A DNA stretch of 64,000 bases, from NCBI RefSeq assembly GCF_003334765.1, contig NZ_QOWT01000003.1. One strand, 5' to 3'. Below, in pieces: positions 21,366 through 64,000 of this stretch. Every line of letters starts with the position of its first letter. The first letter of the stretch is position 1. The position numbers and the translations under genes are program-made. The stretch comes from Escherichia coli (lineage in GTDB: Bacteria > Pseudomonadota > Gammaproteobacteria > Enterobacterales > Enterobacteriaceae). Under the pieces are notes generated by a model. It was not told the DNA's origin. It did no database searches and saw nothing but the letters and a program-made list of their open reading frames with translations.

Positions 21366-23141
21366 TTAACGCTTGTACAACGGACCGTAGTTCTGGCAAG
21401 CGCGGTAATCCTGGCCTTCAATATCCATGCCGTGCGCAGCCCAGGCAGAAGGACGATACACTTTGGTCTCTTCAACGTTGTGCATACATACCGGGATACG
21501 CAGCATGGAGGCGAGAGTGATAAAGTCTGCGCCAACGTGGCCGATGGTCAGAACCCCATGGTTAGCGCCCCAGTTCGCCATTACCGAGTACACATCCGTA
21601 AACGGCCCTTTACCGGTGAGGCGCGGTGCAAACCAGGTGGTTGGCCAGGTTGAGTTGGTGCGTTTGTTGAGGATGTCATGCACATCCTTCGGCAATTCCA
21701 CGCTCCAGCCTTCCGCGATTTGCAGTACCGGTCCCAGGCCTTTGATGATGTTGACACGAGTCATGGTGAACGGGACGCCGCCTTCGGTAAGGAAGCGGGA
21801 AGAGTAACCGCCGCCACGGAAGTATTCGTGGATCGCCGGGCACCATTCGGTAGCGGCGAGGCAAGCGTCAGCCTCTTGCTGAGAGATTTCCCAGTGTGGC
21901 TTCATCGTCGGGTTACCTTCGCTGTCGCGTTGTTTACAGGAACCGTCCAGCGCAGCAGAACCGGAGTTGATCAAATGGATGATGCCGTGTTCTGCCAGTC
22001 CATCCAGTTTATGCCCCGTTACACGCTCAATTGCTTCTGGTGACCAGTAGGTACGCACATCGGCAAATACCTGAGCGGTGCCGGTGAGCTGGTGACCCAT
22101 TAGCATTGCCACGCCGTTAAGACTGTCGTTTTCGGTCGCCACGACAAAGGGTTCGCGCACGCCATTCCAGTCAAATGAACTGTTGAGGATCGCTTCGGCG
22201 GTGTCACCATTGGGATATTGATCGGTCCAGTGACGTTGCCCCTGGAAGCCCGCAGCGATGGCGTTGTAGCCAAGTGATTCTTCCACGCGACCAATATCGG
22301 CCAGTTTGCTGTTGCCTTGCATCATGTCGCGGATACACATCGCCATCAGTAAACTTTCGCGCAGAACTGCGCGGCTTTGCTCGGCATTACGTTGATACTG
22401 TTTGTTATTTTCATCTTCGCCATAGCGGAAGTTTTTATCAGCCCAGGCCAGTGCCATTTCCAATTCGGCTTCGTCGTAAATCTTCTGATCGATACGGCGA
22501 CGCAGTTCGGTCATATCCACCGCCTGGACTTTCATTCCCAGCCAGGATTCAAAGAAGTTGTGATCAACAATGGAACCGGCGATACCCATCGAAACGCCGC
22601 CCAGCGACAGATAGCTTTTACCTTTCATGCTGGCGACGGCCAAACCGGCGCGGGCAAAGCGCAGCAGTTTTTCTTCAACATCGGCAGGAATCGATGTGTC
22701 ATCGGCATCCTGAACGTCATGACCGTAAATGGAGAATGCTGGGATGCCTTTCTGGCTGTGAGCTGCCAGAGCCGCTGCCAGGTAAACAGCGCCGGGGCGT
22801 TCAGTGCCGTTAAAGCCCCAAATGGCCTTCGGGCGGGTTGGATCCATGTCGATGGTTTCACTGCCATAGCACCAGCAAGGCGTTACCGTAATGGTGAGGC
22901 CTACATTCTGACTGCTGAATTTTTCTTCGCAAGCAGCGGCTTCAGCCATACCCGCGATACAGGTATCGGAAATGACACACTCGACGGCAGCTCCGCAGGC
23001 ATGGCGCAGTTTCTCGGTCAGCAGTGCGGCCGTAGCTTTCGCCATATTCATTGTTTGTTCTTCAAGCGACTCACGAACACCCATGCGACGACCGTCAATA
23101 ACCGGGCGGATACCAATTTTCGGTAAGCTGATTTTTTTCAT
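21366..23141 (-). CDS. fucI: L-fucose isomerase
   Basis: 591-aa ORF recognised as FucI. Confidence 0.95.
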
Positions 23142-23173
23142 TACAGATTCCTCACTTTATTCGGAAAATATGT

Positions 23174-24490
23174 TCAGTTAGTTGCCGTTTGAGAACGGAA
23201 ACGGGCAAAGATAAAGATGACCGCGAAGCAGAGTGCGGGGATCAGTTCAGCAGTGGGGATGTTGCCCGCCGCGTCACTGACAAAACCCATGACCGGAGTG
23301 ACAATACCGCCGCCAATAATGGTCATAACGATGAAGGACGAACCATATTTGGTGTCCTGGCCGAGATTCTTAATGCCCAGCGAGAAGATTGTTGGGTACT
23401 GAATCGACATAAAGGCGCTGCATAAAGTCAGGGCTATTAAGCCCACATGACCGCCAGCGAAGGCTGAGATCAGGCACAGTGCCATAGCGATTAATGCGTA
23501 GGCGGCCAGGACTTTGTGTGGTGCGAAGCGACTGATGAGCCAGGTACCGGTGAAACGACCAATAAAGAAGCACACCATGGTTCCGGTTAAATAGTTAGCG
23601 GCAAAGCCTGCAGTCATACCTGGAATTTCTTCTACAGCGTAGCGAATCAAATAGCTCCAGCAGGCCGTTTGTGCGCCGACATAGCAGAATTGCGCTAATA
23701 CCGCCCAGCGCCAGTGGCGAATACGCGCCAGGCGAGAAAGCGATGCGGAGAACGATCCTTGTTTGGCGTCACTGTGATTATCACTCTGCAATGCCGGGAA
23801 TTTCGTCAGCATGATCAGCAGGGCGACCAGTAACACGATAGCCACGATGATCATATAAGGTGTCTGTACCGATAATACCAGGCTGTGTTTATACGCACTC
23901 AATTGCTCTGGAGACATTTTATCGAGAACGTCTTGCGATTGATGTGGCACGTTAGACAAAATAAGACTTTGCCCAAAGACAACCGCGATAATTGCGCCAA
24001 ACGAGTTAAATGTTTGCGCAAGATTTAAGCGGAAGTGACCACTACTTTCCGGCCCTAATACCGTAACAAAAGGGTTTGCGGCAGTTTCCAGACAACCTAA
24101 TCCGGCTGCAATAATAAATAGGCCAACTAAAAATAAGGTGTAGTTCATTATTTCTGCGGCGGGCCAGAATAATGCAGCACCCAAGGCATATAAAAATAAC
24201 CCGGTAATAATCCCTGCTTTATAACTGAGTTTTTTCATCAATATCCCAGCAGGGATTGGGATAATGAAATAACCAAAGTAAAAGGCCGATTGGATCAGGC
24301 CAGCCTGGAAATTTGTCAGCGTAAAAGCCTGCTGGAATTGAGGTAATAAAATGTCGTTAAGGTTATTGGCTACCGCCCAAAGAAAAAACAGTGAGCACAG
24401 CAGCGCGAATGGAATAATGTAACTTCTGCTTTGCCCTGCATCTTTATCTACCGCACGGTAACTCTGCGTTTGTATTGATGTGTTTCCCAT
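23174..24490 (-). CDS. fucP: L-fucose:H+ symporter (MFS)
   Basis: 438-aa polytopic membrane ORF recognised as FucP. Confidence 0.95.
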   Translation of the reverse strand: MGNTSIQTQSYRAVDKDAGQSRSYIIPFALLCSLFFLWAVANNLNDILLPQFQQAFTLTNFQAGLIQSAFYFGYFIIPIPAGILMKKLSYKAGIITGLFLYALGAALFWPAAEIMNYTLFLVGLFIIAAGLGCLETAANPFVTVLGPESSGHFRLNLAQTFNSFGAIIAVVFGQSLILSNVPHQSQDVLDKMSPEQLSAYKHSLVLSVQTPYMIIVAIVLLVALLIMLTKFPALQSDNHSDAKQGSFSASLSRLARIRHWRWAVLAQFCYVGAQTACWSYLIRYAVEEIPGMTAGFAANYLTGTMVCFFIGRFTGTWLISRFAPHKVLAAYALIAMALCLISAFAGGHVGLIALTLCSAFMSIQYPTIFSLGIKNLGQDTKYGSSFIVMTIIGGGIVTPVMGFVSDAAGNIPTAELIPALCFAVIFIFARFRSQTATN

Positions 24491-24678
24491 AGCATCCTCT
24501 TAGGTTCAGAAGCTTAAGCACGTAATCGGTTATGTTTTCAAAAGTGCAAAACCAGCGAGTTCGGGCTTCATATCAGTGAATATTTGCCTGTCTGAAATGA
24601 ACTCATGGATTCATTTTCAAATAAAAAACGCTCTGTAATATGACGGCGGTCACACTTATTAGCTAGAAGGTGACTTTA

Positions 24679-24694
24679 TGTGACTACCATCACT
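24679..24694. promoter_or_regulatory. CRP-like site in the fucPIK/fucAO divergent control region
   Basis: TGTGA-CTACCA-TCACT seen in sequence; one mismatch from the TGTGA-N6-TCACA consensus. Confidence 0.5.
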
Positions 24695-24752
24695 TTAATA
24701 ATCGAAATTTCATGCCCGTTTCAGAAAATAAATCATAAAAAACACAAATCAG

Positions 24753-24847
24753 ATGACCGTATTAATTGTTTGTGCCGAAAACGGTCATTCCGGGCTTGGA
24801 GGAATAGAAAAATGACCGTTTTGATAAATATTTTTAAGAGCGGTCAT
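24753..24847. promoter_or_regulatory. Four evenly spaced ATGACCGT/ACGGTCAT half-sites in alternating orientation (putative FucR operators)
   Basis: ATGACCGT at 24753-24760 and 24812-24819; ACGGTCAT at 24781-24788 and (C)GGTCAT at 24841-24847; about 30-bp periodicity. Confidence 0.45.
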
Positions 24848-25036
24848 TTTTAATGGGGTTATAAAAAGAGAACTTGCAGTTATTTACTGTGATTAGTTGA
24901 ACCAGGTCACAAAATATAAGCTTGTGAATTTCTTTCTTGTTAATCAGGAAGAAGATGGTGGGTAATTAAACGGCTAATTCAATAGTGTGAAAGGAACAAC
25001 ATTATTGCCCTGTTTTGAATCAGAGAGAGGTAGCTA

Positions 25037-25684
25037 ATGGAACGAAATAAACTTGCTCGTCAGATTATTGACACTTGCCTGGAAATGACCCGCCTGGGAC
25101 TGAACCAGGGGACAGCGGGGAACGTCAGTGTACGTTATCAGGATGGGATGCTGATTACGCCTACAGGCATTCCATATGAAAAACTGACGGAGTCGCATAT
25201 TGTCTTTATTGATGGCAACGGTAAACATGAGGAAGGAAAGCTCCCCTCAAGCGAATGGCGTTTCCATATGGCAGCCTATCAAAGCAGACCGGATGCCAAC
25301 GCGGTTGTTCACAATCATGCCGTTCATTGCACGGCAGTTTCCATTCTTAACCGATCGATCCCCGCTATTCACTACATGATTGCGGCGGCTGGCGGTAATT
25401 CTATTCCTTGCGCGCCTTATGCGACCTTTGGAACACGCGAACTTTCTGAACATGTTGCGCTGGCTCTCAAAAATCGTAAGGCAACTTTGTTACAACATCA
25501 TGGGCTTATCGCTTGTGAGGTGAATCTGGAAAAAGCGTTATGGCTGGCGCATGAAGTTGAAGTGCTGGCGCAACTTTACCTGACGACCCTGGCGATTACG
25601 GACCCGGTGCCAGTGCTGAGCGATGAAGAGATTGCCGTAGTGCTGGAGAAATTCAAAACCTATGGGTTACGAATTGAAGAGTAA
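25037..25684 (+). CDS. fucA: L-fuculose-1-phosphate aldolase (class II)
   Basis: 215-aa ORF recognised as FucA. Confidence 0.95.
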   Translation: MERNKLARQIIDTCLEMTRLGLNQGTAGNVSVRYQDGMLITPTGIPYEKLTESHIVFIDGNGKHEEGKLPSSEWRFHMAAYQSRPDANAVVHNHAVHCTAVSILNRSIPAIHYMIAAAGGNSIPCAPYATFGTRELSEHVALALKNRKATLLQHHGLIACEVNLEKALWLAHEVEVLAQLYLTTLAITDPVPVLSDEEIAVVLEKFKTYGLRIEE

Positions 25685-25711
25685 TTTCGTAAAGCAACAA
25701 GGAGAAGGATG

Positions 25712-26860
25712 ATGGCTAACAGAATGATTCTGAACGAAACGGCATGGTTTGGTCGGGGTGCTGTTGGGGCTTTAACCGATGAGGTGAAACGCCGTGGTTA
25801 TCAGAAGGCGCTGATCGTCACCGATAAAACGCTGGTGCAATGCGGCGTGGTGGCGAAAGTGACCGATAAGATGGATGCTGCAGGGCTGGCATGGGCGATT
25901 TACGACGGCGTAGTGCCCAACCCAACAATTACTGTCGTCAAAGAAGGGCTCGGTGTATTCCAGAATAGCGGCGCGGATTACCTGATCGCTATTGGTGGTG
26001 GTTCTCCACAGGATACTTGTAAAGCGATTGGCATTATCAGCAACAACCCGGAGTTTGCCGATGTGCGTAGCCTGGAAGGGCTTTCCCCGACCAATAAACC
26101 CAGTGTACCGATTCTGGCAATTCCTACCACAGCAGGTACTGCGGCAGAAGTGACCATTAACTACGTGATCACTGACGAAGAGAAACGGCGCAAGTTTGTT
26201 TGCGTTGATCCGCATGATATCCCGCAGGTGGCGTTTATTGACGCTGACATGATGGATGGTATGCCTCCAGCGCTGAAAGCTGCGACGGGTGTCGATGCGC
26301 TCACTCATGCTATTGAGGGGTATATTACCCGTGGCGCGTGGGCGCTAACCGATGCACTGCACATTAAAGCGATTGAAATCATTGCTGGGGCGCTGCGAGG
26401 ATCGGTTGCTGGTGATAAGGATGCCGGAGAAGAAATGGCGCTCGGGCAGTATGTTGCGGGTATGGGCTTCTCGAATGTTGGGTTAGGGTTGGTGCATGGT
26501 ATGGCGCATCCACTGGGCGCGTTTTATAACACTCCACACGGTGTTGCGAACGCCATCCTGTTACCGCATGTCATGCGTTATAACGCTGACTTTACCGGTG
26601 AGAAGTACCGCGATATCGCGCGCGTTATGGGCGTGAAAGTGGAAGGTATGAGCCTGGAAGAGGCGCGTAATGCCGCTGTTGAAGCGGTGTTTGCTCTCAA
26701 CCGTGATGTCGGTATTCCGCCACATTTGCGTGATGTTGGTGTACGCAAGGAAGACATTCCGGCACTGGCGCAGGCGGCACTGGATGATGTTTGTACCGGT
26801 GGCAACCCGCGTGAAGCAACGCTTGAGGATATTGTAGAGCTTTACCATACCGCCTGGTAA
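25712..26860 (+). CDS. fucO: L-1,2-propanediol oxidoreductase / lactaldehyde reductase (iron-containing ADH)
   Basis: ORF track starts one codon earlier (MMANRM); the recognised start MANRMILNETAWFGRG gives 382 aa. Confidence 0.95.
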   Translation: MANRMILNETAWFGRGAVGALTDEVKRRGYQKALIVTDKTLVQCGVVAKVTDKMDAAGLAWAIYDGVVPNPTITVVKEGLGVFQNSGADYLIAIGGGSPQDTCKAIGIISNNPEFADVRSLEGLSPTNKPSVPILAIPTTAGTAAEVTINYVITDEEKRRKFVCVDPHDIPQVAFIDADMMDGMPPALKAATGVDALTHAIEGYITRGAWALTDALHIKAIEIIAGALRGSVAGDKDAGEEMALGQYVAGMGFSNVGLGLVHGMAHPLGAFYNTPHGVANAILLPHVMRYNADFTGEKYRDIARVMGVKVEGMSLEEARNAAVEAVFALNRDVGIPPHLRDVGVRKEDIPALAQAALDDVCTGGNPREATLEDIVELYHTAW

Positions 26861-26914
26861 ATGCGCTGATGTGATAATGCCGGATACGACGTTTGCGGCG
26901 TATCCGGCTCGCCG

Positions 26915-27781
<867 letters not shown>

Positions 27782-29149
27782 TTAATCGCAGGCAACGATC
27801 TTCATTGCCAGGCCGCCGCGAGAGGTTTCGCGGTACTTGGCGTTCATATCTTTACCTGTTTCGTACATGGTTTCGATAACTTTATCGAGGCAGACGCGCG
27901 GCTCGCTGGTACGGCGCAGCGCCATACGTGCGGCGTTCACCGCTTTTACTGCCGCAATGGCGTTACGCTCGATGCATGGCACCTGTACCTGTCCGGCGAC
28001 CGGGTCACACGTCAGACCGAGGTTGTGCTCCATGGCGATTTCCGCCGCGATGCACACCTGCGCCGGGCTTGCGCCTAATAGTTCTGCCAGACCAGCCGCC
28101 GCCATTGAGCACGCCACGCCAACTTCACCCTGGCAACCCACTTCAGCACCAGAAATCGACGCGTTCATCTTATAAAGAGAACCAATGGCGCTGGCTACCA
28201 GCAGGTAACGAGCCAGTGAGTTAGCGTTCACTTCGCGGATAAACTTGTCGTAGTACGCCAGAACTGCCGGGATAATCCCGCACGCACCGTTAGTCGGCGC
28301 AGTCACCACGCGACCGCCAGCAGCGTTCTCTTCGTTCACTGCCAGTGCAAACATGTTGATCCAGTCAACAACCGCCATCGGGTCAGTGGTGGTTTTATCC
28401 TGGCTGACCAGCATCCGGCGTAGTGCCGCAGCACGGCGTGGAACGCGCAGTTTGCCAGGCAACACGCCTTCGGTGGAAATACCGCGCTCAATACCGCCGC
28501 GCATGACTTCCCAGACGTTCGCCAGGTGCTGTTCCAGCTCTTCTTTGCTGTGCAGCGCCAGCTCGTTTTTCATCATCAGGCCAGAGAGTGACAGCCCGGT
28601 TTCCTGACAATGTTTTTGCAGATCGGCTGCTGAACTGTACGGATAAGGAACTTCAACCGGTGCGCTATCCTGCTGGCCAAAATGCTCTTCATCAACGATA
28701 AAGCCACCGCCAATAGAGTAGTAAGTCTGGCTGTAAACGACTTTATCGCCCGCCAGCGCGGTAATGCGCATACCGTTTTCATGCAGAGAAAGGTTGTCGG
28801 CGTGGAAGTTCATGCACTGATCAACCGGGAACTCCACTTCATGCTGACCGTTTGCCAGCATCAGGCGACCATGAGTATTCACATCCTGAATAAAACTGGG
28901 GATGGAATCGATATCCACGGTATCCGGCAGGTTACCCGCCAGGCCCATAATAATGGCGATATCAGTGTGGTGGCCTTTACCGGTCAGAGAGAGCGAGCCG
29001 TACACGTCAACCACCACGCGGGTCACGTCTTTAAGCAGGTTACGGGCAATCAGATCGTCGGTAAATTGTTTACCCGCTTTCATTGGTCCAACGGTATGAG
29101 AACTGGAAGGGCCAATGCCGATTTTGAAAATATCGAATACGCTAATCAT
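27782..29149 (-). CDS. sdaB: L-serine dehydratase 2 (Fe-S)
   Basis: 455-aa ORF recognised as SdaB. Confidence 0.95.
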   Translation of the reverse strand: MISVFDIFKIGIGPSSSHTVGPMKAGKQFTDDLIARNLLKDVTRVVVDVYGSLSLTGKGHHTDIAIIMGLAGNLPDTVDIDSIPSFIQDVNTHGRLMLANGQHEVEFPVDQCMNFHADNLSLHENGMRITALAGDKVVYSQTYYSIGGGFIVDEEHFGQQDSAPVEVPYPYSSAADLQKHCQETGLSLSGLMMKNELALHSKEELEQHLANVWEVMRGGIERGISTEGVLPGKLRVPRRAAALRRMLVSQDKTTTDPMAVVDWINMFALAVNEENAAGGRVVTAPTNGACGIIPAVLAYYDKFIREVNANSLARYLLVASAIGSLYKMNASISGAEVGCQGEVGVACSMAAAGLAELLGASPAQVCIAAEIAMEHNLGLTCDPVAGQVQVPCIERNAIAAVKAVNAARMALRRTSEPRVCLDKVIETMYETGKDMNAKYRETSRGGLAMKIVACD

Positions 29150-54317: not shown

Positions 54318-54712
54318 GTGTTCCCCGCGCCAGCGGGGATAAACCGGCAAAAACCGGGCAATCGCAAAAAGGCGTAATGTGTTCCCCGCGCCAGCGGGGA
54401 TAAACCTGTGTTTGCGGCATTAACGCTCACCAGCATTTCGTGTTCCCCGCGCCAGCGGGGATAAACCGACGTGGTCATGGGTGCTGCTGTTGCAGAGCCA
54501 GTGTTCCCCGCGCCAGCGGGGATAAACCGAGCAGATACACGGCTTTGTATTCCGTGCGCCCGTGTTCCCCGCGCCAGCGGGGATAAACCGAATAGCAATA
54601 GTCCATAGATTTGCGAAAACAGGTGTTCCCCGCGCCAGCGGGGATAAACCGGAGCCTGACGAGACTACTGAGGCCGTTCTGTCGAGTTCCCCGCGCCAGC
54701 GGGGATAAACCA
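54318..54712 (+). CRISPR. Type I-E CRISPR array, 7 repeats and 6 spacers of 32 bp, leader-proximal end at 54318
   Basis: 29-bp repeat GTGTTCCCCGCGCCAGCGGGGATAAACCG at 54318, 54379, 54440, 54501, 54562, 54623 and 54684 with 61-bp period; repeat 2 ends CCT; terminal repeat is degenerate (GAG...ACCA). Confidence 0.96.
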
Positions 54713-55166
54713 CCATATAACCCGTTATCTCTTTCTCAAGTTTTTATATTAGCAGTACTTGTAATAAGCAACATATCCACGTAACACCTCATGTTCAAAA
54801 TAGTTCTCCATGCCAGAGAGGTTCACAATTATCGATACAAAAAATTAAATTTAATCAAAGTGTTATTTGTATGATTCTTAAATCGTTAAGAAATTTTAAT
54901 CTATTATTTTTTTAATATTGAATTAATGCCTGTTAATTTTTTCTTTAGAATAACAGTATATTTTTTAAGCTTGTTATTCATTGGTTAAGTAATAAATCTG
55001 GAAGTTTGTCTTTGTTTTGAGGCTAATGAGTGGTTTTACATAACCGCCTCTATACGCTGTTGATGAATAGTTCTTATGAATAAAGATATCCAGTTCATAC
55101 TTTAAGTGAAAATTGATAAAGTGCGATTCGTATTGTCTTTTATTCTAAAGACATCGAGTGTAGTTA

Positions 55167-55304
55167 ATATTCCTTGTAAAAACAGGGATAAACCGAACTA
55201 GTTAAAGTTTTTATTATGTTCCCTGCATCAGCGGGGATAAACCGGACTTGTTATCATTTTTTAAGTTGTCGAACTTATGTTCCCCGCGTCAGCGGGGATA
55301 ACCA
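55167..55304 (+). CRISPR. Degenerate I-E mini-array: 2 recognisable repeats, 1 clean 32-bp spacer, 1 eroded repeat
   Basis: ATGTTCCCTGCATCAGCGGGGATAAACCG (55216-55244), spacer GACTTGTTATCATTTTTTAAGTTGTCGAACTT (55245-55276), ATGTTCCCCGCGTCAGCGGGGATAACC (55277-55303); eroded repeat ending GGGATAAACCG at about 55195. Confidence 0.75.
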
Positions 55305-55350: not shown

Positions 55351-56829
55351 TTACGCATTCGACCAGCTCTGGATCGAATCCACATTCCCCAATTCCCCAT
55401 GCATCACTTCATACGATTTTTTCAGGATCACATCAGTATGTTTGGTTAGGTCTTTGAAAATGCCTTTATTCATCGCGTCGTAGCGTTTGGCATTGCTCTC
55501 AATCGGTATAAAGATATCTTTCACGCGAACCATGTTATCGACAGCCGTTGCGTAATCCGGGTATAGCCCCAGACCTACCGCTGTATTAATCGCTGCCCCC
55601 AGGCTTGCACAACCGTTAATGGCGTTACGTCGTGCCGGAAGGTTGAACACGTCGGCAAAAATCTGCATAAACAGATCGCTGTTCGAACCGCCGCCAGTAA
55701 TGATCACATGCTTCGCAAAGTGATTCATTTCATTACACATATTGTCGTAATTGTTCTTCAGCGTCAGCGCCACGCTTTCCAGTATCGAACGATATATCCA
55801 TGCGTAATCCATGCTGGAATCAAAGCCGATCATAATCCCGCGTTTGTACGGTTCCCACGGATTGGTCAGCCAGTCCAGCACCGTCATCAGACCATTACAG
55901 CCTGGCGGCACACAAGAAGCTTTTTTGTTGAGTAAATCTTCCGGTGAAAGATCCTGCGCCCTGGCATCCTGAATTAACGACTCGCCTAGCATGTCGCGCA
56001 GCCAGCTCACCGTCCACATGCCTTTGCGAATACCGTAACCTTCATACAGCAATGTTTGCGGAATAGAAGACATAATCGGCCAGTACGCTACTGGATCTTT
56101 CGGCAGTGCTTTGCCGTTCATCATCAATGCGATGTAAGTGCCAAGAGAAATTACCGCCGTTTCATCATCCAGTAATCCGGCCCCCAGAGCTTCTACCGGT
56201 TTATCACTGGTGGTACAAACAACCGGCAGTCCTGCCGGGAAATGTGTCGCCAGTGCGGCTTGTGGTGTGATATGTCCGAGGACGGTGCCAGGCATTTGCA
56301 CATCAAACAGCATATGACGGGGGATATTAAACTTATCCATTACCGCAGCATCTTCGCTCCATGCCCAGCTCTTATAATCCACCGGCCACTGACCAAAATA
56401 GTTGGCGATATTGTCTTTAAACTCGCCGGTTAAGCGATGCGTCAGATAACCCGAAAAAGAGGTGACATATGCCACGTCAGGGTTAGTGTGTTCGTAAGGG
56501 CGTGTAACGCGTGCATCCTGCCAGCTAATCAACGGCGCAGCAGGCGTGCCATCGGCTTTCAATAACGCACGGCAGCAACGGATGGATCCCAGACCAATAC
56601 CGACAATATCTTCTTTATTCCCGGCAAACTGACTCATCAAATCGTGACCGGCAAAACATAATGATGCCCATAAATCGTCGTCAGGATGTTCTGCAGTATC
56701 GGCATCTGGCGTGTGCATCGGCTGTAATAAGCCTTTGCCTTCGCAAACCACGTTACCTTCCAGATCGTACATCACCACTTTTGTGCTCTGACTTCCGCCA
56801 TCAATCCCTATGATGTATTTTTTCGACAT
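55351..56829 (-). CDS. ygcE: FGGY-family carbohydrate kinase, substrate unknown
   Basis: 492-aa ORF recognised as YgcE; FGGY N- and C-terminal domains. Confidence 0.88.
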   Translation of the reverse strand: MSKKYIIGIDGGSQSTKVVMYDLEGNVVCEGKGLLQPMHTPDADTAEHPDDDLWASLCFAGHDLMSQFAGNKEDIVGIGLGSIRCCRALLKADGTPAAPLISWQDARVTRPYEHTNPDVAYVTSFSGYLTHRLTGEFKDNIANYFGQWPVDYKSWAWSEDAAVMDKFNIPRHMLFDVQMPGTVLGHITPQAALATHFPAGLPVVCTTSDKPVEALGAGLLDDETAVISLGTYIALMMNGKALPKDPVAYWPIMSSIPQTLLYEGYGIRKGMWTVSWLRDMLGESLIQDARAQDLSPEDLLNKKASCVPPGCNGLMTVLDWLTNPWEPYKRGIMIGFDSSMDYAWIYRSILESVALTLKNNYDNMCNEMNHFAKHVIITGGGSNSDLFMQIFADVFNLPARRNAINGCASLGAAINTAVGLGLYPDYATAVDNMVRVKDIFIPIESNAKRYDAMNKGIFKDLTKHTDVILKKSYEVMHGELGNVDSIQSWSNA

Positions 56830-56855
56830 GATTTTTCTCCTGTAATTTTCCTGGC

Positions 56856-58133
56856 TTACTTGCTGCTAGCCATTGCGGGGGCGCTATCAGCAGTACGAAT
56901 TTTTTGGAACAGCAAAAAGGTAAAGACAATCACCATGCCAAGCGCCGCCATGCCCATCAGCCACATATTGCGGTAGGCTTCTGCAGCGGGCAGGGTGTCT
57001 TGCCAGTGGCCGATAATTGGGTAAACGAAGACATCCGGCAGGAATCCAATCACCGAACAAATACCTACCGTGGTGCCCATAATGTAAGACGGTGTTCTCG
57101 CTTCGCCAGGGCAGGCCCAGTACAGCCCGCGTGAGGCGTAACAGGTGAATCCCAGCAGTAAAATCAGGCCAATCCCCATCGCGACCGATTGCGGGTTAGA
57201 GTTCGTGACGAGCAGGGCAGTTAACGTCAGCAGGCCGAGTACGGAAAGGATTTGGATCACGCGGGTAGGGGATTTCACTTTGCTGTAGGTGGTGATTATG
57301 CCGCCAAGTGGGCCGCACAGCGCGCGGAATATTTTGTTGATCACAATCCCCATGTAGCTCGCCGCCACCAGCGACATGCCATACATTTCGGTCAGATAGT
57401 TGGTGGAGTAACTCAGAATGGCGTAGATGGTGAAGACGCCAAAAATCACCATGCTGCAATACCAGGTGGTGCTGATACGCAAAACGGCCAGGATGTCGCT
57501 AAGCTGGAATGACTGTTTTTCTTCGTTATTGGCACTGCGCAGGTTGTTGTTATCGCTAACAAAAAACCAGCACAGAATCCCCAACAAGATGTAAACCACA
57601 CTATAGATGATAATGACCGTTTTCAGGCTGGTGCTGTCATCCGGTGCAAAGCGAGAAAAGACCCACATGGTAAACACCGCCAGCGACATTACACCGACGC
57701 CGCGCAGCCCTTCCATCCAGCCCATAATTTTCCCTTGCTCGCTATGATCGCCAAGCAACGATGCAGCTTTAATCGACACCGACCACAGCATTAAAATCGT
57801 CGTTATCGCAAAGGCGATCTGAATACAGAGCATTACCCACAGCGGTGGATACGTTGCCATTAACAGACCCAGTAATCCGGTAATGATCATCGCGGAAGTA
57901 ATCATTTTGCGGTGTGAAAATTTATCGGCAATAACGCCGCTGGGGGCATAAAGAATAATGGCCGCAATACCAAAGGTACTCATTATTAAACCTATCTCGG
58001 TATTGCTGAATCCCATAAATTTCGCCATGGGAATTTGATAAATATAACGTAAATAAGCCAGGTCGAAACTAACGCCGCCGCTAAAACTAATTATCGCGAG
58101 GGTTATCCAACGGCGATATGAGTTGTGTTGCAT
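56856..58133 (-). CDS. yqcE: MFS transporter, substrate unknown
   Basis: 425-aa polytopic membrane ORF recognised as YqcE. Confidence 0.85.
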   Translation of the reverse strand: MQHNSYRRWITLAIISFSGGVSFDLAYLRYIYQIPMAKFMGFSNTEIGLIMSTFGIAAIILYAPSGVIADKFSHRKMITSAMIITGLLGLLMATYPPLWVMLCIQIAFAITTILMLWSVSIKAASLLGDHSEQGKIMGWMEGLRGVGVMSLAVFTMWVFSRFAPDDSTSLKTVIIIYSVVYILLGILCWFFVSDNNNLRSANNEEKQSFQLSDILAVLRISTTWYCSMVIFGVFTIYAILSYSTNYLTEMYGMSLVAASYMGIVINKIFRALCGPLGGIITTYSKVKSPTRVIQILSVLGLLTLTALLVTNSNPQSVAMGIGLILLLGFTCYASRGLYWACPGEARTPSYIMGTTVGICSVIGFLPDVFVYPIIGHWQDTLPAAEAYRNMWLMGMAALGMVIVFTFLLFQKIRTADSAPAMASSK

Positions 58134-58311
58134 ATCGTATTCCCATTTGTAATAGACAAAAAAAAGAGAAAAGTAAGCCGCCCTTTCAGGTGGATTACTT
58201 TTCTCAGGTCTCTAGTAATTGAAATAATAAATAACATGGAAAGCAGAGGTGTTGTGTGAGAGTAATCACGCTTCTGCTTTTTAAAATTATTTGACAATAC
58301 GAATATCACAC

Positions 58312-58327
58312 TGTGATTACGATCACA
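58312..58327. promoter_or_regulatory. Consensus CRP site in the yqcE/ygcW divergent region
   Basis: TGTGA-TTACGA-TCACA, a perfect match to both CRP half-sites, overlapped by a second palindrome TCACACTGTGA; TTGACA at 58291-58296. Confidence 0.6.
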
Positions 58328-58380
58328 TTAGCAGTTATGCCCTTATGCTAAAAATTATCTCCAGTTACCAGAGATAATGA

Positions 58381-58427
58381 GAAAGGTAACTTCCCTCTCG
58401 CGGGGGAAGTTACCTTTCTTTTTTTTT
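58381..58427 (+). terminator. Intrinsic-terminator-like hairpin about 25 nt upstream of the ygcW start codon (possible attenuator or leader structure)
   Basis: Perfect 15-bp stem GAAAGGTAACTTCCC / GGGAAGTTACCTTTC with 8-nt loop, followed by 9 consecutive T. Confidence 0.6.
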
Positions 58428-58451
58428 GCCTTACGGAAATTGGAGCTAACT

Positions 58452-59237
58452 ATGTCAATCGAATCTCTCAATGCGTTCTCAATGGATTTTTTCTCCCTGA
58501 AAGGTAAAACCGCAATTGTTACCGGTGGGAATAGCGGTTTAGGCCAGGCATTTGCCATGGCGTTGGCCAAAGCTGGCGCAAATATCTTTATTCCTAGTTT
58601 CGTCAAAGATAACGGCGAAACAAAGGAAATGATTGAAAAACAGGGTGTTGAGGTGGACTTCATGCAGGTGGATATCACCGCAGAAGGCGCGCCGCAGAAG
58701 ATTATCGCTGCTTGCTGTGAGCGTTTCGGTACAGTTGATATTCTGGTTAACAATGCCGGTATTTGTAAGCTGAATAAGGTGCTGGACTTCGGTCGTGCCG
58801 ACTGGGATCCGATGATTGATGTGAACCTGACCGCCGCATTCGAGTTAAGCTATGAAGCTGCAAAAATTATGATCCCGCAGAAAAGCGGCAAAATTATTAA
58901 TATCTGTTCATTGTTCTCTTACTTAGGTGGACAATGGTCACCTGCATATTCTGCCACTAAACATGCTCTTGCCGGGTTCACCAAAGCTTATTGTGATGAA
59001 CTAGGTCAATATAATATTCAGGTAAATGGTATCGCCCCTGGCTATTATGCAACAGATATTACGCTGGCGACACGCAGTAATCCAGAAACCAATCAGCGCG
59101 TTCTTGATCATATTCCGGCAAACCGTTGGGGCGATACTCAGGATTTAATGGGCGCAGCCGTATTCCTCGCAAGTCCGGCATCGAATTATGTCAACGGGCA
59201 TTTATTAGTGGTTGATGGCGGTTATTTAGTGCGCTAA
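58452..59237 (+). CDS. ygcW: Short-chain dehydrogenase/reductase (SDR), substrate unknown
   Basis: ORF track starts at 58377; the likely start MSIESLNAFSMDFFSLKGKTAIVTGGNSGLG gives 261 aa; Rossmann motif TGGNSGLG; catalytic YxxxK. Confidence 0.85.
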   Translation: MSIESLNAFSMDFFSLKGKTAIVTGGNSGLGQAFAMALAKAGANIFIPSFVKDNGETKEMIEKQGVEVDFMQVDITAEGAPQKIIAACCERFGTVDILVNNAGICKLNKVLDFGRADWDPMIDVNLTAAFELSYEAAKIMIPQKSGKIINICSLFSYLGGQWSPAYSATKHALAGFTKAYCDELGQYNIQVNGIAPGYYATDITLATRSNPETNQRVLDHIPANRWGDTQDLMGAAVFLASPASNYVNGHLLVVDGGYLVR

Positions 59238-59306
59238 CCCATAACGGTGGTTTCTGTTTTCTCTTATTAATGATTATTCCATTTTTATTATCAGGAAGGA
59301 ATTACT

Positions 59307-60761
59307 ATGTCTTTATCTCGCGCAGCGATTGTCGACCAGCTAAAGGAAATTGTTGGTGCAGATCGCGTAATTACCGATGAAACAGTATTAAAGAAAAACA
59401 GTATTGACCGTTTTCGTAAATTTCCGGATATTCATGGCATTTATACTTTGCCGATTCCGGCAGCGGTCGTAAAACTCGGTTCCACAGAGCAAGTATCCCG
59501 TGTGCTGAATTTTATGAATGCGCACAAAATTAACGGTGTGCCGCGTACCGGTGCTTCCGCCACCGAAGGTGGGCTGGAAACTGTTGTAGAAAACTCGGTG
59601 GTGCTCGACGGCTCCGCCATGAATCAAATCATTAATATTGATATTGAGAATATGCAGGCGACGGCGCAATGTGGTGTTCCGCTGGAAGTGCTGGAAAACG
59701 CGTTGCGTGAAAAAGGTTACACCACGGGGCATTCTCCGCAGTCAAAGCCGCTGGCGCAGATGGGCGGCCTGGTAGCAACCCGAAGTATCGGGCAGTTCTC
59801 CACACTCTACGGCGCAATCGAAGATATGGTCGTTGGTCTGGAAGCAGTATTGGCTGATGGCACCGTCACACGCATTAAAAACGTGCCACGCCGCGCGGCT
59901 GGCCCGGACATTCGTCACATCATCATCGGCAACGAAGGTGCATTGTGCTATATCACTGAAGTAACAGTGAAAATCTTTAAATTCACCCCGGAAAACAACC
60001 TCTTCTACGGCTATATCCTGGAAGACATGAAAACCGGCTTCAACATCCTGCGTGAAATCATGGTGGAAGGGTATCGTCCGTCAATCGCTCGTTTGTATGA
60101 CGCTGAAGATGGCACCCAACACTTCACCCATTTTGCCGACGGAAAATGCGTGCTGATCTTTATGGCTGAAGGTAACCCTCGCATTGCGAAGGTGACGGGC
60201 GAAGGGATTGCGGAAATCGTTGCCCGCTACCCGCAATGCCAGCGCGTGGACAGCAAGCTGATCGAAACCTGGTTTAACAACCTGAACTGGGGACCGGATA
60301 AAGTGGCTGCCGAACGTGTGCAGATCCTCAAAACCGGCAACATGGGCTTTACCACCGAAGTATCCGGCTGCTGGAGCTGCATCCACGAAATCTACGAAAG
60401 CGTTATTAACCGTATTCGTACTGAGTTCCCGCACGCCGACGACATCACCATGCTGGGCGGTCATTCCTCTCATAGCTATCAGAACGGCACCAACATGTAC
60501 TTCGTCTACGATTACAACGTCGTTGACTGTAAGCCGGAAGAGGAAATCGACAAGTACCACAATCCGCTCAACAAGATCATCTGTGAAGAAACCATTCGCC
60601 TCGGCGGTTCGATGGTGCACCACCACGGTATCGGTAAACATCGCGTTCACTGGAGCAAACTGGAACACGGCAGCGCGTGGGCGTTGCTGGAAGGGCTGAA
60701 AAAGCAGTTCGATCCTAATGGCATTATGAATACGGGTACTATCTATCCGATTGAAAAATAA
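59307..60761 (+). CDS. ygcU: FAD-linked oxidase (GlcD/D-lactate dehydrogenase-like)
   Basis: 484-aa ORF recognised as YgcU; FAD-binding PCMH-type domain. Confidence 0.85.
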   Translation: MSLSRAAIVDQLKEIVGADRVITDETVLKKNSIDRFRKFPDIHGIYTLPIPAAVVKLGSTEQVSRVLNFMNAHKINGVPRTGASATEGGLETVVENSVVLDGSAMNQIINIDIENMQATAQCGVPLEVLENALREKGYTTGHSPQSKPLAQMGGLVATRSIGQFSTLYGAIEDMVVGLEAVLADGTVTRIKNVPRRAAGPDIRHIIIGNEGALCYITEVTVKIFKFTPENNLFYGYILEDMKTGFNILREIMVEGYRPSIARLYDAEDGTQHFTHFADGKCVLIFMAEGNPRIAKVTGEGIAEIVARYPQCQRVDSKLIETWFNNLNWGPDKVAAERVQILKTGNMGFTTEVSGCWSCIHEIYESVINRIRTEFPHADDITMLGGHSSHSYQNGTNMYFVYDYNVVDCKPEEEIDKYHNPLNKIICEETIRLGGSMVHHHGIGKHRVHWSKLEHGSAWALLEGLKKQFDPNGIMNTGTIYPIEK

Positions 60762-60854
60762 TGTGTCAGGCAGCGTTCCGCGATGACGGGGCGTTGCCTT
60801 TTCGGCTTCTCAGGCGAGAAGCCGTTCTTATTACCGGACAATGAAGGGGTAAAG

Positions 60855-62192
60855 ATGAACACTTCACCGGTGCGAATGGATGATTTACCGCTTAACCGTT
60901 TTCACTGCCGCATTGCTGCGCTCACTTTCGGCGCACACCTGACCGACGGTTATGTTCTCGGCGTCATTGGTTACGCCATTATTCAGCTTACGCCCGCCAT
61001 GCAACTGACGCCGTTTATGGCGGGAATGATCGGCGGCTCGGCGCTCCTTGGTTTGTTCCTTGGCAGCCTGGTTCTTGGGTGGATCTCCGACCATATTGGT
61101 CGGCAAAAAATCTTCACCTTCAGCTTTTTGCTGATTACGCTTGCTTCGTTTTTACAATTTTTTGCCACCACGCCAGAGCATCTTATTGGACTGCGCATTT
61201 TGATTGGCATTGGTCTGGGAGGCGATTATTCAGTAGGTCACACCTTGCTGGCTGAATTTTCCCCGCGCCGCCATCGCGGTATTTTGCTGGGCGCATTCAG
61301 CGTGGTGTGGACCGTAGGCTATGTGCTGGCAAGTATTGCCGGACATCACTTTATTTCCGAAAACCCGGAGGCCTGGCGCTGGCTACTGGCATCGGCAGCT
61401 CTGCCCGCGTTGTTGATTACGTTATTACGCTGGGGAACGCCAGAATCACCACGCTGGCTACTGCGCCAGGGGCGTTTTGCAGAAGCTCACGCTATCGTGC
61501 ATCGCTATTTTGGTCCCCATGTTTTACTGGGCGATGAAGTGGTAACGGCGACCCATAAACACATCAAAACCTTGTTCTCTTCGCGTTACTGGCGGCGCAC
61601 GGCGTTTAACAGCGTCTTCTTTGTCTGCCTCGTAATCCCATGGTTTGTGATTTATACCTGGCTGCCAACTATCGCCCAGACTATTGGTCTGGAAGATGCG
61701 CTGACTGCCAGCCTGATGCTTAATGCGTTGTTAATTGTGGGCGCGCTGCTGGGATTAGTTCTGACGCACCTGCTGGCACATCGCAAATTTTTGCTGGGAA
61801 GTTTTTTGCTGCTGGCGGCAACGCTGGTAGTCATGGCCTGTTTGCCTTCCGGCAGTTCATTAACGCTGCTGCTTTTTGTTCTCTTCAGCACCACCATTTC
61901 GGCAGTCAGTAATCTGGTGGGCATTTTGCCTGCGGAAAGTTTTCCTACTGACATTCGCTCGCTGGGCGTCGGTTTTGCCACTGCCATGAGTCGACTTGGC
62001 GCGGCGGTAAGTACTGGCCTGCTGCCGTGGGTGCTGGCGCAGTGGGGAATGCAAGTCACCTTATTGCTCCTGGCGACAGTGTTGTTGGTTGGTTTTGTTG
62101 TGACCTGGCTATGGGCACCAGAAACTAAAGCCCTCCCGCTGGTGGCGGCGGGAAATGTAGGAGGTGCGAATGAACATTCTGTTAGCGTTTAA
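60855..62192 (+). CDS. ygcS: MFS transporter (sugar porter-like), substrate unknown
   Basis: ORF track starts at 60783; the likely start MNTSPVRMDDLPLNRFH gives 445 aa. Confidence 0.85.
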   Translation: MNTSPVRMDDLPLNRFHCRIAALTFGAHLTDGYVLGVIGYAIIQLTPAMQLTPFMAGMIGGSALLGLFLGSLVLGWISDHIGRQKIFTFSFLLITLASFLQFFATTPEHLIGLRILIGIGLGGDYSVGHTLLAEFSPRRHRGILLGAFSVVWTVGYVLASIAGHHFISENPEAWRWLLASAALPALLITLLRWGTPESPRWLLRQGRFAEAHAIVHRYFGPHVLLGDEVVTATHKHIKTLFSSRYWRRTAFNSVFFVCLVIPWFVIYTWLPTIAQTIGLEDALTASLMLNALLIVGALLGLVLTHLLAHRKFLLGSFLLLAATLVVMACLPSGSSLTLLLFVLFSTTISAVSNLVGILPAESFPTDIRSLGVGFATAMSRLGAAVSTGLLPWVLAQWGMQVTLLLLATVLLVGFVVTWLWAPETKALPLVAAGNVGGANEHSVSV

Positions 62193-62949
62193 AGCCGAAC
62201 CGGATGCCGGAATGCTGGCGGAAAAAGAGTGGCAGGCGGCGGCTCAGGGTAAAAGCGGACCGGATATTTCGCTACTGCGAAGTTTACTCGGTGCTGATGA
62301 ACAGGCCGCTGCCGCGCTGCTGTTGGCGCAGAGAAAAAACGGTACGCCGATGTCTTTAACCGCGTTGAGCATGGGGGATGAACGGGCATTGCACTGGCTG
62401 CGCTATCTCATGGCTCTTGGGTTTGAGGAAGCTGTATTGCTGGAGACGGCGGCAGATCTGCGCTTTGCGCCGGAATTTGTCGCTCGCCATATTGCCGAAT
62501 GGCAGCATCAGAATCCGCTGGATCTGATAATTACCGGCTGCCAAAGCAGCGAAGGGCAGAATGGGCAAACGCCATTTTTGCTGGCGGAAATGCTGGGCTG
62601 GCCCTGCTTCACCCAGGTGGAGCGTTTCACTCTCGACGCGCTGTTTATCACCCTCGAACAGCGTACTGAACATGGGTTGCGTTGTTGCCGGGTTCGCTTG
62701 CCTGCGGTGATTGCCGTGCGTCAGTGCGGTGAAGTGGCCTTGCCAGTACCGGGAATGCGCCAGCGAATGGCTGCGGGGAAAGCAGAAATTATCCGTAAAA
62801 CTGTTGCTGCCGAAATGCCAGCGATGCAGTGTCTGCAACTGGCAAGAGCAGAGCAACGACGCGGAGCGACGCTGATTGATGGGCAAACGGTAGCAGAAAA
62901 AGCTCAAAAGCTATGGCAGGACTATTTACGCCAAAGGATGCAGCCATGA
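62170..62949 (+). CDS. ygcR: Electron-transfer flavoprotein beta-subunit-like protein
   Basis: ORF track begins MRMNILL; the recognised start MNILLAFKAEPDAG gives 259 aa; overlaps ygcS stop and ygcQ start. Confidence 0.82.
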   Translation: MNILLAFKAEPDAGMLAEKEWQAAAQGKSGPDISLLRSLLGADEQAAAALLLAQRKNGTPMSLTALSMGDERALHWLRYLMALGFEEAVLLETAADLRFAPEFVARHIAEWQHQNPLDLIITGCQSSEGQNGQTPFLLAEMLGWPCFTQVERFTLDALFITLEQRTEHGLRCCRVRLPAVIAVRQCGEVALPVPGMRQRMAAGKAEIIRKTVAAEMPAMQCLQLARAEQRRGATLIDGQTVAEKAQKLWQDYLRQRMQP

Positions 62950-63806
62950 ATATCGCAATTGTGACAATAAATCAGGAGAATGCCGCAATAGCAAGCTGGC
63001 TGGCGGCGCAGGATTTCAGCGGTTGTACCCTGGCGCACTGGCAGATTGAACCTCAGCCTGTAGTGGCGGAACAGGTGCTGGATGCGTTGGTGGAACAGTG
63101 GCAGCGAACGCCTGCGGACGTTGTTCTCTTTCCGCCGGGAACGTTTGGCGATGAACTGTCGACCCGGCTGGCCTGGCGTTTACATGGTGCAAGCATCTGC
63201 CAGGTGACTTCGTTAGATATTCCAACCGTAAGCGTGCGCAAATCCCACTGGGGAAATGCGCTAACGGCGACGCTGCAAACAGAAAAACGCCCGCTATGCC
63301 TTTCCCTGGCGCGTCAGGCGGGAGCAGCGAAAAACGCCACGTTGCCCTCTGGAATGCAACAACTGAACATTGTCCCGGGTGCGCTTCCGGACTGGCTGGT
63401 TAGCACAGAGGATCTGAAAAATGTTACCCGCGACCCATTAGCTGAGGCCAGACGGGTGCTGGTGGTGGGGCAGGGCGGAGAGGCAGATAACCAGGAAATC
63501 GCTATGCTGGCAGAAAAGCTGGGAGCCGAAGTGGGCTACAGTCGGGCGCGAGTGATGAACGGTGGCGTTGATGCTGAAAAAGTGATTGGTATTTCCGGAC
63601 ATCTGCTGGCACCTGAGGTGTGTATTGTTGTTGGCGCTTCTGGCGCAGCAGCGTTAATGGCGGGCGTACGCAATAGCAAGTTTGTGGTGGCGATTAATCA
63701 TGACGCCAGCGCTGCGGTATTTTCACAGGCAGATGTTGGCGTGGTTGATGACTGGAAAGTGGTGCTGGAGGCACTGGTGACAAACATTCACGCAGATTGC
63801 CAATAA
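62946..63806 (+). CDS. ygcQ: Electron-transfer flavoprotein alpha-subunit-like protein
   Basis: ORF track starts at 62913; the likely start MNIAIVTINQENAAIASWL gives 286 aa; FAD-binding ETF-alpha C-terminal region. Confidence 0.82.
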   Translation: MNIAIVTINQENAAIASWLAAQDFSGCTLAHWQIEPQPVVAEQVLDALVEQWQRTPADVVLFPPGTFGDELSTRLAWRLHGASICQVTSLDIPTVSVRKSHWGNALTATLQTEKRPLCLSLARQAGAAKNATLPSGMQQLNIVPGALPDWLVSTEDLKNVTRDPLAEARRVLVVGQGGEADNQEIAMLAEKLGAEVGYSRARVMNGGVDAEKVIGISGHLLAPEVCIVVGASGAAALMAGVRNSKFVVAINHDASAAVFSQADVGVVDDWKVVLEALVTNIHADCQ

Positions 63807-63808
63807 CG

Positions 63809-63917
63809 TGTTGCCGGATGATCCTGCCTACGGTTCTGGCCTGGGGACTTGTAGGCCTGATAAGACGCGTCAAGCGTCGCATCAGGCGCTGAATGTCGGA
63901 TGTGGCGTGCGGCCTAC
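63809..63917. repeat. BIME/REP cluster downstream of ygcQ
   Basis: REP copies in alternating orientation, e.g. GTAGGCCTGATAAGACGCGTCAAGCGTCGCATCAGGC and TGTCGGATGTGGCGTGCGGCCTAC. Confidence 0.8.
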
Positions 63918-64000
63918 AAATCAAACCAAATTCAATTGGTTACGATTATCCCGTCAAAGTAATTTTTTCGCTAACGTCCAGACCCCGGTATTCGTGGTGG

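Follow-up and report, generated by a model that had tools for sequence, protein, structure and literature searches.

The genes ygcE, yqcE, ygcW, ygcU, ygcS, ygcR and ygcQ form an 8.4 kb block at positions 55351–63806 of the 64 kb stretch of Escherichia coli DNA analysed here (contig NZ_QOWT01000003.1; hereafter the window). These ygc genes are a long-standing part of the E. coli core genome with unknown function, and they raise the question of what switches such a locus on and what chemistry it serves. Our analysis points to a probable answer, namely that the regulator CRP and antitermination by the protein YgcP at two leader RNAs together gate a catabolic cassette composed of a kinase (YgcE), a short-chain dehydrogenase/reductase (SDR; YgcW) and a flavoenzyme (YgcU). 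The initial annotation had described a co-regulated catabolic locus of unknown substrate with a dedicated electron-transfer flavoprotein (ETF) pair, a description backed by the comparative evidence, and it had overlooked the leader terminators and ygcP, a second CRP site and the active site of YgcU. Earlier work had already recorded both the cluster, as a group of genes of unknown function, and its CRP site; new here are the leader attenuators, their match to two orphan small RNAs (sRNAs), the link to a YgcP subfamily across three phyla, and the active site of the alkyl-dihydroxyacetonephosphate synthase (ADPS) type in YgcU.

Both divergent operons of the locus open with a leader that closes in an intrinsic terminator. 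The ygcW leader RNA occupies positions 58358–58431 on the plus strand (covariance model 78 bits, E 8e-15) and the yqcE leader RNA positions 58219–58156 on the minus strand (67.6 bits, E 2e-12). The model finds exactly these two copies within the window, a third leader sought with it upstream of ygcN or ygcP was not found, and a search of Rfam returned no family matching the leaders. In the ygcW leader, the box A-GUUACC (58363–58369) is followed by AGAGA (58370–58374), GAGAAAGG (58379–58386) and GGUAACU (58385–58391), with the terminator stem at 58379–58420 and the end of the U-run at 58427. In the yqcE leader, AUUAC (58219–58215) is followed by AGAGA..GAGAAAAG and GUAAU (58198–58194), with the terminator stem at 58205–58166 and a U8 run at 58165–58158. 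A long perfect hairpin and T-run (19 pairs before the T-run in a terminator scan of the ygcW leader) are situated directly before each start codon, and the U-runs, present on the sense strand only, end 22–24 nt ahead of the ygcW and yqcE start codons. The mechanically assigned reading frame of ygcW starts too early, at 58377, and would be translated across the leader terminator with its T-run; the true start is at 58452, on which RefSeq and the homologues agree. The predicted energies are −30.6 kcal/mol (z −7.8) for the ygcW terminator against −6.7 kcal/mol for its antiterminator, and −20.5 kcal/mol (z −5.0) against −1.4 kcal/mol for yqcE; further folds of the leader hairpins gave −42.3 kcal/mol with z −7.1, and z −3.6. 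Because the antiterminators are weak compared with the terminators, termination is the default state.

The two leaders coincide with RNAs that have already been detected. Romero et al. (2014) listed in their Table S5 two "novel sRNAs" in the ygcW-yqcE spacer, namely ecr2774, with a length of 73 nt on the ygcW strand, and ecr2775, with a length of 63 nt on the yqcE strand (2898527–2898590) and confirmed by Northern blot, both accumulating as discrete RNAs in LB and in M9 / glucose medium (PMC4681348). Their 5′ ends lie 139 nt apart, and jointly they cover 276 of the 318 intergenic nucleotides. Mapped onto the window, ecr2774 corresponds to 58358–58431 (+) and ecr2775 to 58219–58156 (−), i.e., to the leaders from their start to the U-run. 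This mapping used the MG1655 annotation and the version-2 coordinates of that genome, which reproduce the 318-nt spacer and place the sRNAs on the leaders. Since the sRNAs coincide with the leaders, both promoters fire in LB and in glucose medium on this mapping, with transcription halting at the leader terminators.

The leaders share the consensus A-GUUAC(U/C), 0–4 nt, AGAGA, 3–4 nt, GAGAAAAG-GUAAC, a variable upper stem-loop, CUUUUCUC and U7–10, in which the upstream GUUAC is able to pair with the GUAAC in the 5′ arm of the terminator, forming a weak antiterminator. A covariance model was built from 22 well-aligned leaders and all leaders were then realigned to it, because MAFFT misplaced the GUUAC box in leaders with longer spacers. 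In this alignment, 93.8% of the cells of the antiterminator helix are paired, compared with at most 54.6% in slid controls. Pair 2–34 is GC in 33 sequences, AU in 6 and unpaired in none, the other variants being G-U wobbles. For the two A's of GUAAC, pairing with the GUUAC box is seen in 39/39 and 38/39 cases, but with the 3′ arm of the terminator in only 31/37 and 22/37. The terminator itself also has covariation in its favour, as 94.8% of its cells are paired and changes on both sides occur at 8 pairs. The GUUAC/GUAAC pairing shows covariation, and this, coming from few independent events, is supportive rather than conclusive.

In addition, each of the two promoters has a CRP site to itself, at a class-II-like position. 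The perfect CRP consensus that the initial annotation had placed in the yqcE/ygcW divergent region is present as the core TGTGATTACGATCACA at 58312–58327, is the sole zero-mismatch CRP core in the window, and by position serves the ygcW promoter. A second CRP-like site with one mismatch, TGTGAGAGTAATCACG at 58255–58270, by position serves the yqcE promoter. The TGTGATTACGATCACA site was predicted in 2007 (PMC1794230), CRP binds it in vitro with a Kd of ~1.7 nM (PMC12871828) and in vivo, by ChIP, in enterotoxigenic E. coli (PMC4287617), and yqcE-ygcE is catalogued as CRP-activated (PMC8085971). The spacing was compared in all 11 readable enterobacterial and Vibrio divergent regions, each of which contains two sites. 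The centre of TGTGATTACGATCACA lies 44.5 nt from the GUUAC of the ygcW leader, a spacing kept at 43.5–45.5 nt in the 11 loci, and that of TGTGAGAGTAATCACG lies 43.5 nt from the AUUAC of the yqcE leader, with equivalents at 42.5–44.5 nt in 11/11. The fixed distance from site to leader, maintained while the distance between the paired sites varies from 36 to 204 nt, argues that each promoter has its own CRP site. Relative to the RNA-seq 5′ ends at 58358 and 58219, which are good to a few nucleotides, the CRP centres lie at about −38.5 and −43.5, against a class II expectation of about −41.5.

Beyond E. coli, the intergenic regions of loci gathered through YgcP homologues have the element before every cluster operon. 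Lelliottia, Leminorella, Pantoea, Izhakiella, Vibrio, Clostridium, Sporomusa, Thalassobacillus, Enterococcus and Streptomyces all carry it, mostly twice in a locus. A covariance-model copy of 61 bits was found in the GC-rich Streptomyces clavuligerus and one of 34 bits before an MFS (major facilitator superfamily) gene in Enterococcus; in Clostridium the element also occupies internal cluster positions, and YqcE homologues lie directly 3′ of it in Enterobacterales and Enterococcus. A pattern scan of metagenomes added 18 further leader instances, only loci with both GUUAC and GUAAC being kept from 56, about two thirds of which were unrelated GA-rich palindromic repeats. All regular-expression instances (35/35) were located 0–110 nt upstream of a YqcE, YgcW, YgcE or YgcU homologue, and YgcP is encoded in 6/6 of the loci that were found by RNA alone and cover both flanks. 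YgcP, an FGGY kinase, an SDR and a YgcU-type flavoenzyme occur together in Enterobacterales, Vibrio, Clostridium, Sporomusa, Thalassobacillus, Fodinisporobacter and Streptomyces, and the partly read Enterococcus locus showed YgcP, the SDR and the flavoenzyme, with no kinase seen. The co-occurrence across Enterobacteriaceae proposed as a check in the initial annotation extends to three phyla, among which the gene order differs while the gene set and the RNA element recur. Among the unrelated GA-rich palindromes are two families that recur in many soil and freshwater contigs, one flanked by CTAAGAG...CTCTTAG (L009, L010, L028, L034, L036, L038–L040, L050–L052, L055, L062) and one flanked by CACACAGAG...CTCTGTGTG (L017, L019, L025, L026, L035, L041, L042, L044, L049, L056, L061).

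The protein that could act on these leaders is encoded at the right edge of the window, where the 3′ end of ygcP lies at 63954–64000 on the minus strand and the gene continues past the edge. The continuation was taken from a strain identical to the window over the whole 8.4 kb block, whose annotation also supplied the gene call. YgcP is a full-length member of PF04309 (G3P_antiterm; residues 12–184 on model positions 1–173 of 173, E 1.6e-62) and matches PDB entry 3kts (E 1.2e-27). YgcP-type proteins of the three phyla are 43–65% identical to one another and 28–40% identical to canonical GlpP, and by these identities YgcP is a distinct subfamily apart from canonical GlpP. In Bacillus subtilis, GlpP with glycerol-3-phosphate (G3P) overrides the leader terminators of glpD, glpFK and glpTQ (PMC9604022, PMC10573289). 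The ygc system resembles it in the protein family, shared over the full length, in the intrinsic terminator in the 5′ leader of the target operons, present for both ygc operons, in a regulator gene that shares its locus with the kinase making the likely phosphorylated inducer, and in catabolite control added on top, by CcpA in Bacillus and by CRP for ygc. The canonical GlpP leaders of Cytobacillus glpF, Cytobacillus glpD and B. thuringiensis glpP-ugp also carry a purine-rich tandem AGAGA..GAGA abutting the 5′ arm of the terminator. In contrast to GlpP, the genes controlled here are not glpFK, glpD, glpT or glpTQ and instead comprise the kinase/SDR/ADPS-like flavoenzyme cassette, as yqcE-ygcE, ygcWUSRQ and their homologues. 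The ygc leader moreover includes a conserved GUUAC/GUAAC helix as an additional part, and its terminator stands on the invariable foot GAGAAAAG..CUUUUCUC. Plain G3P is an unlikely inducer, the YgcP type is found in Proteobacteria and Actinobacteria besides Firmicutes, and the ygc covariance model scores the canonical leaders at only 10–15 bits. No description of GlpP-type control for E. coli was found in the literature searched. The logic is likewise that of BglG/SacY/LicT and their RAT element (E. coli bgl), where a weak antiterminator overlapping the 5′ arm of the terminator needs a sugar-responsive RNA-binding protein, but those proteins are of the unrelated CAT-PRD type under phosphorylation by the sugar phosphotransferase system, and their RNA motif is unrelated.

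Regarding the enzymes, none attains its NCBIfam equivalog cut-off, so that a specific function is not transferable, and assignments as KduD, XylB/LsrK/GlpK or GlcD were rejected on these grounds. The gene ygcE (55351–56829, minus strand; reading frame and RefSeq), second in the yqcE-ygcE operon, encodes an FGGY-family kinase whose best NCBIfam matches are XylB, LsrK and GlpK at 99–142 bits (the top match 141.8 against a cut-off of 380) and which, of the proteins with solved structures, is most like LsrK and glycerol kinases. The SDR oxidoreductase gene ygcW (58452–59237, plus strand; reading frame, RefSeq and NCBIfam) is KduD- and gluconate-5-dehydrogenase-like, scoring 350.6 bits against 369 for the KduD model, and its orthologues are 63–93% identical across phyla. 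The gene ygcU (59307–60761, plus strand; reading frame and RefSeq) encodes an FAD-linked (FAD_binding_4) flavoenzyme that scores 142.6 bits against an equivalog cut-off of 568, its best solved relatives being the ADPS entries 4bby and 2uuu (E 1e-40). Arg262, Tyr398 and His438–440 of YgcU align with Arg419, Tyr578 and His615–617 of ADPS, the Y578F mutant entry 4bca confirms the aligned Tyr column, and the five residues are invariant in 11 orthologues (62–90% identical). On this alignment the Arg, Tyr and His-His-His that serve catalysis in ADPS are all retained in YgcU, whereas ordinary GlcD/LctD-type relatives have (A/S)EHG at the HHH position.

YgcU and ADPS align over the FAD_binding_4 and cap domains, and they differ in that about 170 residues of the N-terminal region are missing from YgcU (484 versus 658 aa). 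The alignment begins at ADPS residue 138 (2uuu) or about 194–215 (4bby), which leaves YgcU outside the ADPS length of about 580–660 aa with its N-terminal domain. That domain forms a lipid tunnel in ADPS. YgcU, by contrast, is a cytosolic protein of bacteria whose partners are a kinase, an SDR and, in many cases, an ETF; since no lipid genes are situated near ygcU, its substrate is presumably a soluble substituted dihydroxyacetone phosphate (DHAP) and not acyl-DHAP. The Clostridium (L006 422–3909) and Sporomusa (L007 14954–16495) loci bear a second flavoenzyme of the ordinary GlcD/LctD type with the SEHG motif, beside which Clostridium has a second ETF pair whose alpha subunit bears a ferredoxin domain, an arrangement reminiscent of lactate dehydrogenase/ETF complexes.

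The ETF genes are ygcR (62170–62949, plus strand; ETF beta / FixA-like, RefSeq, with weak NCBIfam scores below cut-offs) and ygcQ (62946–63806, plus strand; ETF alpha / FixB-like, RefSeq and NCBIfam). The initial annotation had noted that the cluster runs off the right edge and had proposed looking there for ETF-quinone oxidoreductase or ferredoxin-like genes; just beyond the window ygcP is followed by ygcO, encoding a FixX-like ferredoxin, and ygcN, encoding a FixC-like flavoprotein, and then by queD and cysJIH. YgcN scores 359–380 bits to the FixC/PRK10015 subfamilies and YgcO 82 bits to FixX, and with the ETF matches YgcR and YgcQ the set of ETF beta and alpha with FixC and FixX is complete in the E. 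coli locus. These scores lie below the equivalog cut-offs, which makes the ygc proteins paralogues and not Fix itself. As in FixABCX of the E. coli carnitine locus, to which the BCCT transporter CaiT belongs, and in LctBCD, ETF and FixC/FixX paralogues stand beside a substrate-specific flavoenzyme; the order flavoenzyme-ETF beta-ETF alpha in Vibrio, Clostridium and Sporomusa matches the component set of LctBCD-type complexes, and the Firmicute and Vibrio ygc versions share with cai/fix the link to BCCT transporters. Unlike in those systems, the scores fall far under the equivalog cut-offs and the ETF is dispensable in aerobic ygc versions. It is present in E. coli, Lelliottia, Leminorella, Vibrio, Clostridium and Sporomusa and absent from Pantoea, Izhakiella, Thalassobacillus, Fodinisporobacter and Streptomyces, leaving a minimal three-enzyme cassette in aerobes. 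FixCX was found in E. coli, Lelliottia, Leminorella and the metagenome loci L013 and L058. In the Leminorella locus (L003 17290–18578, 12257–13098), the yqcE and ETF-beta homologues are each split into two reading frames, a sign of decay.

In the mechanism that we propose, the conserved core consists of a transporter, the kinase YgcE, the SDR YgcW and the ADPS-like YgcU, to which facultative and strict anaerobes add the dedicated ETF (YgcRQ), and E. coli and its close relatives the ETF-oxidising FixC/FixX pair (YgcN/YgcO). The first gate lies at the two divergent promoters, each with its CRP site at a class-II-like distance, and the second in the transcripts, both of which open with the conserved leader of ~65 nt ending in a strong intrinsic terminator and in ordinary media yield the 63- and 73-nt RNAs. 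YgcP, whose gene comes last in the convergent ygcNOP unit, would bind the purine-rich AGAGA-N4-GAGAAAAG when loaded with its ligand, a phosphorylated intermediate of the pathway, probably the product of YgcE and a G3P analogue. Binding would stabilise the GUUAC/GUAAC helix and so occupy the 5′ arm of the terminator, and RNA polymerase would read into yqcE-ygcE and ygcW-U-S-R-Q. With low confidence, the substrate may be a small polar alcohol with a glycerol-like end. Phosphorylation and oxidation would turn it into a substituted DHAP, the compound that YgcU would act on; any electrons could pass by way of the ETF and FixCX to quinone or, in aerobes, to O2.

Several points weigh against this mechanism. 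The alignment was fitted to the model (which encoded the terminator and not the antiterminator helix), AU at pair 2–34 arose in about two lineages and the independent events are few, and the counts are inflated by relatedness among the leader sequences and by horizontal transfer of some of them. The yqcE antiterminator is barely stable alone (68/200 shuffles fold as well as its −1.4 kcal/mol). The likeness to canonical glp leaders is drawn from three of them, no clear leader motif emerged from the canonical GlpP loci of Listeria and C. butyricum, and RNA binding and ligand response of YgcP are carried over by analogy from B. subtilis GlpP. Furthermore, YgcP could simply sense G3P, the two small RNAs may have trans-acting roles as well, and the ETF is absent from several cluster versions.

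The best of the competing explanations, which we nevertheless consider improbable, makes the locus an alternative, anaerobic route for glycerol or G3P, with YgcE as a glycerol kinase paralogue, YgcU and the ETF as a G3P dehydrogenase and YgcP sensing G3P. It draws on the membership of YgcP in a G3P-responsive family, the resemblance of YgcE to glycerol kinases and an active site in YgcU like that of an enzyme handling DHAP derivatives. E. coli, however, already owns glpK, glpD and glpABC, the cassette always includes an SDR that is superfluous for plain glycerol, its transporters are of the MFS, BCCT or Opu type and never GlpF or GlpT, the YgcP clade stands separate from canonical GlpP, and YgcE reaches 99 bits against a GlpK cut-off of 590.

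If the leader were instead a riboswitch binding a small molecule, with YgcP having another role, enzymatic or at the protein level, the mutually exclusive terminator and antiterminator would fit, as would an element conserved in sequence in three phyla and lacking an Rfam family. We rate this as very unlikely, given that the sensing part would be just a 5–7 bp helix closing a 14–18 nt purine-rich loop, beyond which no structure is conserved, far simpler than most aptamers, that a PF04309 gene lies beside the element in every locus with enough sequence, and that GAGA repeats are common to canonical GlpP leaders. Equally small is the chance that ecr2774 and ecr2775 are independent trans-acting sRNAs with their own terminators, the downstream genes having separate promoters. 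Such RNAs would accumulate as the discrete 63- and 73-nt species seen in LB and M9, but the short distance from U-run to start codon leaves no space for a further promoter, the element always stands in cis before a cluster gene, including the internal Clostridium positions and the Sporomusa BCCT gene, and the CRP spacing is set by the leader transcripts and not by the coding sequences. That the genes stand side by side without being related and the hairpins merely terminate transcription or insulate divergent genes from each other, a condition under which the initial annotation would have withdrawn its reading, has nothing in its favour beyond the absence of a known function and is scarcely credible, since the same gene set and RNA element occur in three phyla despite different gene orders and the hairpins point into the genes with sense-strand U-runs.

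The transporters offer some indication of the substrate. In enterics they are MFS proteins, here YqcE (56856–58133, minus strand; anion:cation symporter-like) and YgcS (60783–62192, plus strand; sugar-porter / aromatic-acid symporter-like), both called from reading frame, RefSeq and NCBIfam, with YgcS confined to enterobacterial cluster versions. BCCT carriers take their place in Vibrio, Clostridium, Sporomusa (there behind its own leader copy) and Thalassobacillus, and Opu-type ABC systems in Fodinisporobacter and Enterococcus. The cluster BCCT is closest to trimethylamine, betaine and choline carriers, and the Opu binding protein to choline, ergothioneine and carnitine binders. The substrate may therefore carry a quaternary-ammonium group, at least outside enterics. 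The literature searched for a ygc substrate held no assignment, in keeping with the initial annotation, and consisted only of screens, promoter catalogues and one report on YgcS, in which its overexpression raised the production of nicotinamide mononucleotide (NMN) from nicotinamide by up to 68%, uptake of nicotinamide being suggested (PMC8601175). YgcS is a distant relative of NiaP, and the NMN report is indirect and assigns no pathway.

A more specific proposal, which we put forward tentatively and regard as rather unlikely, is that YgcE, YgcW and YgcU constitute a complete new route from a trimethylammonium-type, glycerol-headed solute to DHAP and a choline- or betaine-type product. YgcE and YgcW would make a substituted DHAP, and YgcU, as a soluble enzyme of the ADPS type, would remove its C1 substituent. 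The solute would be sensed as a G3P-like phosphate ester by a GlpP-type riboregulator, as far as found the first described in Proteobacteria, and example substrates would be a glycerophosphocholine-like compound or the deacylated head group of a betaine lipid. The proposal derives from the conserved ADPS residues, the BCCT and Opu transporters in six lineages (one under the leader) and the minimal three-enzyme aerobic cassette.

Concerning the block as a whole, the reading frames of all seven genes agree with the RefSeq annotation at the positions initially given, and the family calls made from the sequence (an FGGY kinase, two MFS transporters, an SDR, an FAD oxidase and an ETF pair) hold up, as do the overlapping frames, which amount to 23 nt between ygcS and ygcR and 4 nt between ygcR and ygcQ. 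Of 5426 complete E. coli genomes, 5401 carry the block, in every case on the chromosome. The cluster sits between queE/CRISPR-2 and queD-cysJIH in both E. coli and Lelliottia, near the sulfite reductase genes. In the identical strain (22796–27796 right of the window), ygcNOP begins 77 nt downstream of queD, and a terminator sought in this queD-ygcN gap was not found. Left of ygcE, between queE and ygcE, lies a CRISPR array (54319–54732) of seven 29-nt type I-E repeats GTGTTCCCCGCGCCAGCGGGGATAAACCG with a spacing of 61 nt, which we take to be the known E. coli CRISPR-2 locus, and a short degenerate array (55167–55301) lies nearer ygcE; this region gave no match to Rfam at E up to 0.1. The convergent ygcQ/ygcP spacer contains a palindrome of the REP (repetitive extragenic palindromic) type at 63854–63927, where the Rfam search of the leaders gave its only match, to naRNA4, which with 34 bits stays under the gathering score of 59.5. 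In Enterococcus raffinosus (L067 8828–10057) an IS110 transposase gene is situated between ygcP and the SDR operon, likewise a sign of decay.

Should two leader terminators keep the locus silent, this would explain why expression and phenotype screens have been uninformative. The leaders and YgcP offer a direct way toward the substrate, so that the function of the locus becomes testable, and two orphan small RNAs gain a function. If the reading is true, YgcP would be the second specific protein antiterminator in E. coli besides BglG, and GlpP-type control would extend past glycerol and past Firmicutes. The ADPS-like site, together with transporters of the betaine/choline type, points to an unexplored quaternary-ammonium chemistry that may be relevant to gut metabolism.

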